Numbered from the stretch's first letter, positions 30,215 to 33,490 are shown. The stretch: DNA of 64,000 nucleotides from Alphaproteobacteria bacterium (GCA_963422645.2 CAXXVO010000009.1:192001-256000), one strand, 5' to 3'. Made by a program: numbers and translations. Notes: generated by a model not told the origin, from the letters alone.

Positions 30215-30568
30215 ATAGCGCCGCAGCGCGATGCGCCGCCCTTGCCCTTTGCTCCTGCGAGACTGCGCTGCCGAATTCTCTTCAAGTCGACGATGTGCGA
30301 TGCACCATGTGCCTCGCGCACGCCAGGCGCAAAGCGCATCGACCCCATTGATTTGTGTAGGATACACGCTTGCTAAAAGCGCATGCCTGATGGGCATAAT
30401 GGTGTAACTGCCCAGGTACCCCCTCTCTCTTATGGAACAAGCCAGTTCCTTTTGCGTCAACGCCCCCACGCCGCGGGGGTGCCTACTCTCTTGAGCGCGA
30501 GAGGATGATGAACGCCGCGTCGCGAACAAGATGAGAGGACAGCGATACTCAGGATGAGCCGGAGAAGT

Positions 30569-32107
30569 TCAGGAGCGCAGTATAGGGATCAGCTGCATCG
30601 GTTCCGGGTGCGCCAGGATTTGCAGGATGTTCCAGCCTTGCTTTCGAGCGGTGACGATGACGCTGCGCATTCCGGCGAAGTTGCAGGCGCCTTGCAGGGA
30701 GCGGAAGCCGCCTGAGATCTTCTCATGCACTTTGTTCATACGGATGTCACGCTCCGCCTCGTTATTCGTGAACGGCGTGCGCAGGTCGGTGAGGAAGCGC
30801 AGGCAGCCCTCCTTATGCTTTTGAAGGCGGCGCGCGAGGTTGTGGCCGATGCGGCGTTTCTTTCGCCCTCGCTTTGCGATCTGGAGCGGCGGTTGGGCCT
30901 CATGGAAGGCGATGGCTTCTTCGAGGATACGGTCCCATGCCCTTGAGATGCGGGCCACCAGGGAGGCGGGGACTTGACGGTCTTTCTCACGGGCGAAGCG
31001 GGCGGCCCTGCGCGCGCGCTGAAGCAGGCGGTGCATGCTCGCCGCCCATTCCTCCTTCTCGATGTCGATCAGGGCCTGGAGTTCGCGCAGGTGATGTGCG
31101 TTGCAGGCGCCGTGGCGGACGCCCTTGATGGTGAAGTAGGGGGCGAAGTCGTCGTGGACGAGGATGCCTTTCAGGTTCTTTTCGACATCGCCGCGTCCCT
31201 CGCCGATGCGCAGGACGGTGAGCAACGGGGTGCACAGCACATGGAGCCAGCGGGTACGGGCGGCGATACGCAGGCCGGTCTCGTCGAGGTGCTTGACCGG
31301 CGCCTGCGTGCGGATCAGATCGGCGACATGGTCGAGGAAGCCCTCGAAGCGCTGCGCTGTGCGCCGGCCCATGGCGGCGATCGTGGCAGTGGAGATGGAC
31401 ACCGCGAAGATGTCGCTCATGAGTTCGGCCAGACGCTTCTCGGGCACGAACTGGGCGTACAGCAGGTAACTCACCCAAGCGGTGATGCGAGGGCCGTACT
31501 GGACCGGGGCGGTGACGCCCGGCGGGAAGGCGGCTCGTGTCAGCGTGCCGCATGCGCCGCAGAGGCAGCGATGGGCGCGGTGTTCGGTGACCTCGAGAGG
31601 CTGCGGCTCGGGTACGTCGAAGACCTGCCGACAGGCGGGCGCGCCTTGCCGGTCGGCGTCCGAGAGCTCGACGCCACAGCCGGAACAGGTGGAGGGGTGG
31701 TGATCGACGACACGGTCCGGGCTGTCGCTCCGCGCGAGGGTGGTTCCCTTGTGGCCGGGCTGGCCGCCACTGGGCCCGCCGGACTTTCCGCGCTGGCTTT
31801 GGGTGCGCCTCTGGGCTCCGCTTTTCTTCTTGAGCCCGTCGCTGGCGGGGGGCTTGCTGCTTGTGGTGCTGTTGAGGGCCGCGCTGCGCTCGAGTTCGGC
31901 GATGCGCTCGCGCAGGGCCGCGTTCTCCTGCTCGAGTGCGGCATTTTCCCGGGCGAGCGCGGTGGCTGATCGCAGCAGCCCCTGCCCCCATTCCCGGACG
32001 GCAACGACGACAGTGGTTGCGAGGGATGATGGCTCGAGAAGCTCCTTCAGGCAGCAGAAGGCCTCGTTACGGGCGGCGAGGTCTTCGTGCCAGTGCGACA
32101 CCGTCAC
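30569..32107 (-). CDS. tnpC: IS66 transposase TnpC (isoform B)
   Basis: HLDETG, CNAHHLREL, NNEAERDIR. Confidence 0.95.
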   Translation of the reverse strand: MTVSHWHEDLAARNEAFCCLKELLEPSSLATTVVVAVREWGQGLLRSATALARENAALEQENAALRERIAELERSAALNSTTSSKPPASDGLKKKSGAQRRTQSQRGKSGGPSGGQPGHKGTTLARSDSPDRVVDHHPSTCSGCGVELSDADRQGAPACRQVFDVPEPQPLEVTEHRAHRCLCGACGTLTRAAFPPGVTAPVQYGPRITAWVSYLLYAQFVPEKRLAELMSDIFAVSISTATIAAMGRRTAQRFEGFLDHVADLIRTQAPVKHLDETGLRIAARTRWLHVLCTPLLTVLRIGEGRGDVEKNLKGILVHDDFAPYFTIKGVRHGACNAHHLRELQALIDIEKEEWAASMHRLLQRARRAARFAREKDRQVPASLVARISRAWDRILEEAIAFHEAQPPLQIAKRGRKKRRIGHNLARRLQKHKEGCLRFLTDLRTPFTNNEAERDIRMNKVHEKISGGFRSLQGACNFAGMRSVIVTARKQGWNILQILAHPEPMQLIPILRS

Positions 32108-32769
32108 GTGTCTTCGGCCTCGACGGCCATCATGGCGGCGAGCACGGCGAGGCGTTCGCCCGGCGGCAAGGCCTGGTAGCGCCGGCCCCAGTTGGCTGCC
32201 TTGCGCTTGATGCGCTGGCGGTCGGTGAAGTTCCGGCCTGCGTGGCTGGCCCAATGCATCCGGTCGGGGGCGTAGTTGAACCAGACGACCTCGGTTCGCA
32301 CCAGACCCTGGGTCGTGACCTGCAGCGCCAGCCGGCGCCATCCCGCCAGCACCTCGTCATAGAGCGCCGACGGATGGCCCGAGATCATGACCTGGCAGGG
32401 CAGAGCCTTGAGCAGCGCGAGAAGCGCGACGTGGCCGGCCTCCTCGTACTCGAAGCGGTAGCGCTGCGCCGAGCGGCGGGTCGCGTGCAGATAGGGCGGA
32501 TCGCTGTAAACCAGCTCCGGGCCCAGGAACGGGAACGAGGCCAGGAAGTCATGGGCACAGCCGTGAACCAGATCGACCGGGTAGTCGCAGACGAAGGCCT
32601 CGAGCGCCTGCGCATCGCGGTCGATGCCGATCGAACGCACGGCCGGCGGCTTGCGCTTCATCAGCGCCCCGCCCCCAAGGTGGCTTTCGATGTAGACGGA
32701 GTGCGGCGGCATCAGCGCAATCAGCGCTTGGCACAGACCTGCTGTCGCCTTCGAGCCGAAATACCCCAT
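32104..32769 (-). CDS. Dam/D12-class N6-adenine MTase (isoform B)
   Basis: DPPY; about 30 substitutions versus isoform A. Confidence 0.88.
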   Translation of the reverse strand: MGYFGSKATAGLCQALIALMPPHSVYIESHLGGGALMKRKPPAVRSIGIDRDAQALEAFVCDYPVDLVHGCAHDFLASFPFLGPELVYSDPPYLHATRRSAQRYRFEYEEAGHVALLALLKALPCQVMISGHPSALYDEVLAGWRRLALQVTTQGLVRTEVVWFNYAPDRMHWASHAGRNFTDRQRIKRKAANWGRRYQALPPGERLAVLAAMMAVEAEDT

Positions 32770-32797
32770 GGACCGCTCCCGTCACGCGAGAGAGCAG

Positions 32798-32826
32798 TCC
32801 ATAGTCCCGCAACTCTATGAGGTCAA
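32798..32826 (-). promoter_or_regulatory. Sigma70-like promoter of the MTase-tnpC operon (isoform B)
   Basis: TTGACC-N17-TATGGA; hexamers and spacing match isoform A while the spacer has diverged. Confidence 0.6.
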
Positions 32827-33490
32827 GAACCAATCGCGGTGGCAGAACCAGGCCGCGGCCGCCGCCATAATCACCGTCCTCAACTCAGGATTGGGGTACC
32901 TGGGTAGTTACATAATGGTAGAAAATTTCATTTGAAACTTGCCTGTCTTGTGCCCGCTATCATGGAAGTTTTTCTAACAATATCTGACATTCTCTGCCGT
33001 GCATTATTCTGCAAGGGTAACTCAGAAAATTGGCAGCTAAGGGCCAATATATCTTCCCCACTCCCTGACCGCCATTCGGATTATACGTCTGACATAAGCA
33101 GGTTAGGTCAGAACAGGCAGATCCGATATGTCGAATTACCAGGGAATTATTCCCTTCGACTGACTGGTACAAGCGGTGCAAATAGAAGAGAATAGCTGCC
33201 ACTACTCTCCTGTACACCTCGATATAATTCGCTGCACTTGGCGGAATATTCATAAGAACTTCTTATTGAGGGAGTTAGAAATCCTTGCTGGACCATACGC
33301 CCCGGTATTGCCACATCCATACGTGAAGTGTGTGCAGTTAATTCCTGAAAGGCCGGGGCCGCAGATGTTCGAGAAACGAAACGACCTGGTAACTGCCCAG
33401 GTCTGATTCTGCCGAGCACTCGGACGTGATGGATTGATGGTTCTGACCAGCCAGGGGTCAGGCGGCGCTTTCCCGGAGCAGCGCAGGATT

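Follow-up and report, generated by a model that had tools for sequence, protein, structure and literature searches.

Why does an insertion sequence (IS) carry a gene for a Dam-like protein directly in front of its transposase gene? The question is raised by a 64,000-nucleotide stretch of DNA from an Alphaproteobacteria bacterium (GCA_963422645.2 CAXXVO010000009.1:192001-256000; hereafter the window), in which elements of the IS66 family encode, upstream of the transposase TnpC, a protein of 221 or 222 amino acids with the predicted fold of a DNA adenine methyltransferase. The protein is a full-length homologue of Upf31 from IncP-1beta plasmids, and its gene lies with its promoter in a segment that was also found in front of transposase genes of the IS701 family. 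The best reading, to which a probability of roughly 55% is given, is that this segment is a captured, autorepressed, plasmid-derived cassette that throttles expression of the IS66 transposase.

The proposed cassette consists of a sigma-70-type promoter, a palindrome (CATAG-N10-CTATG) placed in the spacer and -10 box of that promoter, a hairpin leader and the 221-amino-acid Upf31-like protein. The protein would bind the palindrome in its own promoter and turn the operon off. As no separate promoter can be recognised for tnpC, whose start lies within the stop codon of the upstream gene (GTGA), synthesis of the transposase would follow the activity of the cassette. A repressor acting in trans would make repression rise with copy number, and such a copy-number-dependent brake would let the element reach dozens of copies.

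The element, its Upf31-like protein and its promoter

Two isoforms of the element, B and C, were compared with the window by BLAST, which returned four copies. Their coordinates were exactly those given in an original prediction made from the sequence of the window; two copies are intact and two are damaged, copy A being split and copy D truncated (Table 1). Isoform B (30404-32911) is intact, measures 2508 bp and has 19-bp inverted ends and an 8-bp duplication on both sides. It holds only two open reading frames (ORFs), which fill positions 143-2343 of the 2508 bp. In isoforms B and C the Upf31-like gene and tnpC both lie on the minus strand, the first encoding the motifs YFGSK, HLGGG and DPPY, and the GTG start of tnpC overlaps the upstream TGA stop as GTGA, an overlap that had been predicted and was read in both isoforms. 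TnpC of isoform B matched the Pfam models DDE_Tnp_IS66 (PF03050; E 6e-41, 141 bits against a cut-off of 23.1), zf-IS66 and DUF6444, and scored 289 bits against NF033517, the NCBIfam model for IS66 transposases (cut-off 180). The TnpB_IS66 model matched at three places of the genome, all of them outside these elements. As only two ORFs are present and no TnpB_IS66 match lies within the elements, the element belongs to the IS66 subgroup that lacks tnpA and tnpB; a Dam-fold gene stands in their place, as the prediction had proposed.

The AlphaFold model of the Upf31-like protein was built on 28 sequences and had a mean predicted local distance difference test (pLDDT) score of 72.7. In this predicted model residues 1-167 form a methyltransferase core containing HLGGG and DPPY, and residues ∼170-221 form a basic helical C-terminal domain, the two helices of which were modelled with low confidence and had no structural match. 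The best Foldseek matches of the model were E. coli Dam and DpnM. Superposition gave a Z score of 17.0 with E. coli Dam (root-mean-square deviation (rmsd) 2.2, 147 residues aligned), 16.7 with T4 Dam and 16.3 with DpnM, the rmsd for the three being 2.2-2.7 over 147-151 residues; generic Rossmann methyltransferases reached Z 13-14, about 3 units below the Dam group. Model residues 1-167 cover Dam residues 8-270 with 147 aligned, and only ∼20 residues lie between motif III and DPPY. On this ground the target-recognition domain of Dam, ∼100 residues between motifs III and IV, is missing from the predicted structure, in agreement with the earlier claim that almost no such domain is left.

Residues G32, G34, D90, P91 and P92, which belong to the S-adenosylmethionine (SAM) loop and DPPY, were invariant in 28/28 aligned sequences. 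Because the SAM and DPPY motifs are invariant, the protein has probably kept its ability to bind SAM and to flip out an adenine, which may lie in the operator. A Pfam search with the window protein at E 0.01 gave no match. At a permissive threshold PF02086 scored 12.1 bits against a cut-off of 22, which was passed by the close relatives P0031 and P0085 and by Upf31 (26.8-28.8 bits), and TIGR00571 scored 22 bits against a cut-off of 114.85. The single sequence gave no match in a search against solved structures; a profile search against solved structures gave a weak match to DpnM (E 0.0034) together with spurious TPR matches. A homodimer prediction with two copies and the alignment scored 0.20 (mark 0.42).

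Isoform B has the promoter hexamers TTGACC/TATGGA and isoform C has TTGACT/TATGGG, set 17 nt apart. Between the isoforms the spacer has diverged apart from the half-sites (C/T)ATAG and CTATG, which accords with the predicted pattern of kept hexamers and a diverged spacer. Upstream DNA of the gene was taken from the 2 window isoforms and from 76 related loci, and the 78 sequences gave 40 distinct promoter segments; locus L069 stands outside this count, its -35 box (TTGGCA) having missed the search pattern. All 40 distinct promoters follow TTGAC-N2-(C)(A)TAG-N10-CTA(T)G with fixed spacing, the -10 hexamer overlapping the second half-site. Positions 10-12 read TAG and position 25 is A in 40/40; T24 is present in 38/40 and C23 in 37/40; at the ten positions between the half-sites the top base occurs in at most 29/40. 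Some lineages have CGTAG...CTACG, and C26 was found in 3/7 promoters with G9 and in 1/32 with A9, a modest sign of symmetric change in the half-sites.

A search of the genome for YATAG-N10-CTATR returned 80 sites, where 3.2 were expected from base composition. A gene copy adjoins 78 of these sites, and another falls within a fragment of the promoter. The terminal repeats of six elements that were checked contain no consistent half-sites, so a role in the promoter fits better than a role at the ends.

The leader of isoform B was folded with RNAfold into a hairpin of -12.2 kcal/mol. Most of the 40 distinct leaders have a hairpin 2-4 nt past the -10 box (median z -1.3 against shuffles). The stems vary (GCUCUC/GGGAGC, UGAUCC/GGAUCA, GGUCCG/CGGACC), and in many cases the ribosome-binding site falls within the 3' arm. 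Hairpins that block translation of read-through transcripts are known from other insertion sequences, and the leader hairpin may act in the same way here. Among the sequencing runs compared, one of possible RNA origin gave a 166-nt contig within tnpC, and the others gave DNA contigs.

One cassette in two IS families and on plasmids

The gene was followed through its 80 best genomic loci (66-95% protein identity). An IS66 TnpC is encoded directly downstream on the same strand in 65/80, and among these close relatives the linkage to TnpC that the prediction had called for is thus present. At most IS66-linked loci TnpC is 30-35% identical to the window TnpC and the upstream protein ∼70%, the latter value being found across several phyla.

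Nine of the other 15 loci have a transposase of the IS701 family downstream. PF13546 (DDE_5) was matched at L058, L060, L071, L096 and L109, the L058 transposase also scoring 308.8 bits against NF049999 (cut-off 170); L061, L072, L066 and L084, the last with a nested IS1634 in between, were assigned to IS701 by similarity. Two of the remaining loci have a weak DDE_Tnp_1-type ORF (L075 5264-6949 and L102 4946-6949; DDE_Tnp_1_assoc and DDE_Tnp_1 matches of 28.8 and 24.8 bits), which suggests a possible third partner transposase family, and four are without an assigned partner, one of these with 441 bp downstream. IS701-type copies share 2537-2790 bp within a genome, have ends CTCGACTTTGTACA and are flanked by 5-bp duplications that vary between copies (CTTAG, CTCAG, CTAAG, CTGAG, TTCAG). 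The elements at L058, L060, L061, L071 and L072 are real IS701-family insertion sequences. The upstream protein of the IS701-family elements is 83-85% identical to the window protein; the transposases and the ends are unrelated. A second IS66 lineage was recognised by GTAACTACTC ends and an 8-bp duplication.

The limits of the shared segment were read from an alignment of isoform B with the L058 IS701 element. Nucleotide similarity is 83% over a stretch that opens with the first base of the -35 box and closes one base beyond the stop codon; no similarity was found outside it. The cassette is a unit from the -35 box to the stop codon. A quick protein tree was calculated from 52 distinct proteins, two short rows being dropped; on it four changes of the IS701 label are required, and well-supported branches force at least two of these. 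Start/stop overlaps of the GTGA or ATGA type were seen in three IS701 lineages as well as in IS66a. In the second IS66 lineage tnpC is in frame with the upstream gene and opens directly past a single stop, mostly TAG, at 12/18 distinct junctions (L063, L064, L068, L069, L070, L074, L076, L086, L091, L093, L100 and L110). Such a junction could permit read-through fusion of the two proteins, or could be simply inherited.

Homologues at E <= 0.001 numbered 3706 in a 90%-clustered database, the best 120 all being at least 70% identical, and 5660 among representatives of 50% clusters. They were found in 196 plasmid records, all at less than 60% identity, and 134 of the 196 are conjugative. Some of the plasmid homologues are annotated as upf31.0 of IncP-1 plasmids. 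By BLASTP pBP136 Upf31 is 45% identical to the window protein (residues 1-218 against 1-222, E 8e-68), the C-terminal domain included. Six plasmid homologues were inspected and none precedes a TnpC. The neighbours in 4/6 of these regions include radC, JAB-domain and zincin-like metallopeptidase genes, which are typical of anti-restriction or leading regions.

The pBP136 upf31 promoter reads TTGACA-G-CATCG-N10-CGAGACT and that of pPUV-6, a Pseudomonas aeruginosa plasmid, TTGACA-T-CATCG-N10-CGATGCT; plasmids of Xanthomonas oryzae and Photobacterium damselae have CATAG-N10-CTATG(A). The palindrome geometry is shared by four of the six plasmid homologues inspected. Separately, the Sphingobium plasmid pCFD-1-3 (L113, 2495-4771) encodes a homologue of ∼51% identity with a gene for an IS1380-like ISSp1 transposase 200 bp downstream, and several sphingomonad plasmids gave near-identical protein matches.

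Upf31 has been studied experimentally. According to the published work, it is a predicted Dam homologue that gave neither GATC methylation nor a single-molecule real-time (SMRT) kinetic signal in methylase-free E. coli (bioRxiv 10.1101/2024.02.05.579024; PMC11997246). The preprint also reports that Upf31 lowered its own 68-bp promoter from 4.76 to 0.09 XylE units, this autorepression being measured with a hybrid R751/pBP136 Upf31 only, that its effect on plasmid persistence needs residues 173-225 in the C-terminal domain, and that the likely upf31 operator, in the authors' view, consists of inverted CAGCATCG repeats (bioRxiv 10.1101/2024.02.05.579024). The word transposase has 0 occurrences in the published Upf31 paper (Elg et al., Mol Biol Evol 2025, PMC11997246).

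Copies in the genome and in the window

The genome examined (5.9 Mb, 23 contigs, 67% G+C) gave 92 matches to the Upf31-like protein and about 76 full-length copies of the gene. Full-length copies of the element numbered 36 for isoform B and 14 for isoform C at 97.3-100% identity, with many fragments besides. Perfect 8-bp duplications flank 22/36 full-length copies of isoform B and 11/14 of isoform C; together with the duplications ATAATGGT and ACGACCTG of the window these bear out the claim that the gene travels with the IS. The upstream ORF is intact in all 50 full-length copies (36/36 B, 14/14 C) and TnpC is truncated in 3/50, a contrast that is not significant given the gene lengths. The Upf31-like gene was found in only 4/40 related genomes, 3 of the 4 being among 20 genomes of the same genus, and the expansion is therefore recent and lineage-specific.

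Genome-wide the 8-bp duplications are AT-rich despite a G+C content of 67%, and the 470 bp between the two intact elements of the window (32920-33388) are strikingly AT-rich. From the duplications and this stretch the element seems to prefer AT-rich targets.

Between isoforms B and C the Upf31-like proteins differ at 31/220 aligned residues (85.9% identity), close to the ∼30 of ∼221 that had been estimated, and the TnpC proteins are 75.9% identical. Nucleotide identity is 88% for the upstream gene and 78-80% for tnpC. The view that the upstream gene is conserved more than tnpC holds for identity; it does not hold for constraint, the ratio of nonsynonymous to synonymous substitution rates (dN/dS) being 0.23 for the upstream gene and 0.24 for tnpC. 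At 0.23, and not near 1, the upstream gene is under purifying selection no stronger than that on the transposase. It looks better conserved because its synonymous rate (dS) is half that of tnpC (0.31 vs 0.63). Its greater similarity would fit a more recent common origin, for example by cassette exchange.

Table 1. Elements in the window, with the positions of their parts and of the surrounding duplications
Feature	Position	Strand	Basis or remark
Target-site duplication, left copy ATAATGGT (isoform B)	30396..30403	.	Read directly; equals 32912-32919
Terminal inverted repeat, TnpC side, GTAACTGCCCAGGTACCCC	30404..30422	+	Reverse complement of 32893-32911 with one mismatch; 19 bp
tnpC, IS66-family DDE transposase, 512 amino acids	30569..32107	-	Pfam and NF033517 matches
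Upf31-like Dam-fold gene, 221 amino acids	32104..32769	-	Motifs, predicted structure, 45% identity to pBP136 Upf31
Hairpin of the 5' untranslated region directly past the -10 box, with the ribosome-binding site GGGAG in its 3' arm	32773..32797	-	RNAfold
Cassette promoter and operator-like palindrome, TTGACC-T-CATAG-N10-CTATGGA	32798..32826	-	Cross-lineage conservation, upf31 promoter homology
Parts of the isoform B promoter	-35 box 32821-32826; half-sites 32815-32819 and 32800-32804; -10 box 32798-32803	-	
Terminal inverted repeat, cassette side, GGGGTACCTGGGTAGTTAC	32893..32911	+	
Target-site duplication, right copy ATAATGGT	32912..32919	.	
Isoform C, intact, 2461 bp	33389..35849	-	Flanked by ACGACCTG
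Parts of isoform C	tnpC 33491-35032; Upf31-like gene (222 amino acids) 35029-35697; promoter/operator 35726-35754	-	
Copy A (isoform C), 14266-16621 and 19134-19244	14266..19244	-	Split by a foreign IS, 16622-19133
Copy D (isoform C), truncated at its own position 816, inverted	55642..57287	+	Cassette and 5' part of tnpC remain

Copy A has no matching target duplication, ATATAATC being found at one flank and AGCATGAT at the other (14258-14265, 19245-19252). As the flanks differ, recombination between two copies or an adjacent deletion is suggested. The foreign IS that splits copy A is 2.5 kb long, with ends CAGACTTCCTGACCTC, a 5-bp duplication and a loose 5-bp target. It has two overlapping ORFs of 436 and 572 amino acids, both matching Pfam Transposase_29, which probably form one frameshifted transposase. 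It cuts copy A within the cassette promoter and parts the -35 box from the -10 box, and several copies of isoform B elsewhere are broken by the same IS at positions 433/438. A serine-recombinase element was considered as the cause of the recurrent breakpoints in the IS copies and rejected, the insert being this Transposase_29 IS. That this IS aims at the operator specifically was considered and is unsupported: its 71 complete copies genome-wide (for example at L117) lie at varied sites.

In two copies of isoform C (G000 C9:266076-266735 and C13:103898-104557) the upstream gene contains an identical internal TAG, and a Transposase_29 IS is nested at one and the same site in each. The pair may be a defective composite that was copied, with its proteins presumably supplied in trans. 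Copy D is cut off beside two minus-strand ORFs (57115-60169) with AAA_25 and integrase-core (rve) domains, which look like an IS21-like or Tn7-like transposition pair.

Readings of the cassette and known systems

Several points weigh against the reading of an autorepressed cassette. Binding and repression by the IS-borne protein, and with them an effect of copy number, are inferred, being transferred from the experiments with plasmid Upf31. tnpC may have an internal promoter of its own. A scan for the strict sigma-70 consensus gave no site for isoform B, as the final T is absent from its -10 box; the -10 boxes of both window isoforms (TATGGA, TATGGG) are poor, and the promoter call for isoform B rests on conservation across lineages and on homology to the tested upf31 promoter. 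The half-site centres are 15 bp apart, unlike the usual one-turn spacing of dimeric repressors. The plasmid homologue is 45% identical and its half-site is CATCG instead of CATAG, and 2/6 plasmid homologues have no such palindrome within 130 nt upstream. The 80 related loci are kin and come from far fewer genomes, so that the conservation counts overstate independence. Lastly, a pure repressor needs no invariant DPPY and SAM loop, and repression alone is therefore probably an insufficient explanation of their conservation.

This last point is where a self-marking epigenetic switch would enter, a possible but rather unlikely extension of the autorepressed cassette, which it does not exclude. 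The protein would be an active N6-adenine methyltransferase with a single good substrate, the palindrome of its own promoter. Full methylation would hold the state of the promoter, and passage of the replication fork would leave it hemimethylated and briefly change expression of the transposase, giving the element an IS10-like, replication-coupled trigger that would also work in hosts without Dam. In favour of the switch are the invariance of the catalytic DPPY and of the SAM loop, a core that can be superposed on Dam, T4 Dam and DpnM at Z 16-17, and the overlap of one half-site with the -10 box. In IS10 the Dam site overlaps the transposase promoter in a similar way. Against the switch, Upf31 gave no SMRT kinetic signal, and methylation is not known to have been detected for any member of the family. 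Position 11, always an adenine in the IS promoters, holds a cytosine in the operator of IncP-1beta, so that a common target base is not obvious. The SMRT-negative strain expressed the Upf31 ORF from a vector, we infer without the native operator, and a rare target of two half-sites could thus have gone unseen. A target restricted to the operator would reconcile the invariant motifs with the negative SMRT result.

The most far-reaching version, a portable epigenetic controller, is more doubtful still. Here a cassette derived from a conjugative-plasmid gene would have been recruited repeatedly by at least two unrelated IS families, and its Dam-fold protein would both occupy and methylate its own palindrome. 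The transposase would be limited by copy number and briefly released by replication, independently of a host methylase. In the in-frame IS66 lineage read-through may then fuse the regulator to the transposase.

The original prediction had pictured a low-specificity N6-adenine methyltransferase that shields the element or the DNA carrying it against restriction, or alters the host methylome with copy number. Loss of the Dam recognition domain (model residues 1-167 against Dam 8-270, 147 aligned), the conjugative nature of 134/196 plasmid records with a homologue, and the radC, JAB-domain and zincin-like metallopeptidase neighbours in 4/6 plasmid regions inspected would suit such an enzyme. It is improbable all the same and, of the readings considered, fits the Upf31 data least: an enzyme that is promiscuous or has a short site ought to have shown itself in the SMRT test of Upf31, which was not the case. 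About 76 full-length gene copies would predict heavy genome-wide methylation, methylation after integration would be no protection for incoming DNA, and the invariant operator-like site and the fixed, transposase-coupled position, found with IS701 transposases as well, are left unexplained. This part of the prediction was not upheld.

A plain passenger, that is, an anti-defence or regulatory gene of plasmids that rides in the IS and serves plasmid or host with no role in transposition, has a still smaller chance of being correct. Passenger genes are known from other insertion sequences, the family far exceeds the IS-borne clade (5660 cluster representatives at E <= 0.001), and 0/6 plasmid homologues inspected precede a TnpC. 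The cassette, however, always lies 5' of the transposase gene, on the same strand and overlapping or abutting it, in at least two unrelated IS families, and its ORF is intact in 50/50 full-length copies with a dN/dS of 0.23. The IS701-linked genes need at least two partner switches on well-supported branches, which points to repeated recruitment into the exact 5' position. Replacement of TnpA and TnpB by a transpososome accessory factor that binds the ends or TnpC is very unlikely, for although the gene occupies the tnpA-tnpB position upstream of tnpC and is translationally coupled to it, an 83-85% identical protein serves IS701-family elements with unrelated transposases and ends, and the terminal repeats of the six elements checked share no half-sites.

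Insertion sequences are usually described as a transposase and its ends, with self-restraint credited to frameshifting, antisense RNA or host Dam. In the elements described here the 5' control region of transposase genes in unrelated IS families appears to be supplied by one discrete cassette, which combines promoter, operator and regulator and is common also to conjugative plasmids; it accompanies bursts to dozens of copies in one genome. The autorepressed cassette would offer a testable account of how symbiont-like genomes reach very high IS copy numbers without host death. For the enigmatic Upf31 the family becomes much wider, and a second biological setting is added, one that is absent from the published work. 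In thousands of database entries the name "DNA adenine methylase" may stand for regulators with unproven enzymatic activity, and if methylation of the operator were true, the element would be the first transposon known with its own methylation-based timer. A literature search, which left ISfinder, TnCentral and REBASE outside its scope, returned no description of an insertion sequence carrying a Upf31-like gene.

The closest known system is Upf31 of the IncP-1beta plasmids pBP136 and R751. It is homologous to the IS protein over the full length and has HLGGG, DPPY and the basic C-terminal domain in common with it, and its promoter has the layout of the IS promoter: the -35 box is followed by a first half-site (positions 8-12), and after 10 bp comes a second one, which overlaps the -10 box. 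upf31 belongs to the plasmid backbone, where it lies between tra and trb and has no link to a transposase, whereas the IS gene precedes tnpC; the half-site is CATCG in IncP-1beta upf31 and CATAG in the IS. Upf31 is proposed to work via KorB (Elg et al., PMC11997246), which is absent from insertion sequences. With E. coli Dam, T4 Dam and DpnM, N6-adenine methyltransferases of the alpha group, the IS protein has the catalytic core and motif order in common; unlike them it lacks, in the predicted model, the ∼100-residue recognition domain and has an extra basic helical tail of ∼50 residues.

Dam controls IS10, IS50 and IS903, where the enzyme is that of the host and the site is GATC. The likeness lies in an adenine-containing site that overlaps the -10 box of the transposase promoter; if methylation takes place, the present element would, unlike these, bring its own enzyme and its own site. 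Canonical IS66 elements have the accessory genes tnpA and tnpB upstream of tnpC, an 8-bp duplication and ends starting with GTAA, and the ISBst12 group of ISfinder is the IS66 subgroup without tnpA and tnpB. The elements of the window resemble the ISBst12 type in a TnpC with DDE_Tnp_IS66 and zf-IS66, in GTAA ends, in the 8-bp duplication and in the lack of tnpA and tnpB, and differ from it in the extra gene upstream of tnpC, which is unrelated to tnpA and tnpB and supplies the promoter and the stop-codon overlap. InsA of IS1 and OrfA of the IS3 family have a helix-turn-helix, their binding sites are the terminal repeats, and frameshifting fuses them to the transposase. As with InsA and OrfA, a small, here predicted, DNA-binding protein is encoded before the transposase on the same transcript and would limit its expression in trans; unlike them, the protein of the IS66 element has a methyltransferase fold, its putative site lies in an internal promoter, and its cassette is common to IS families.

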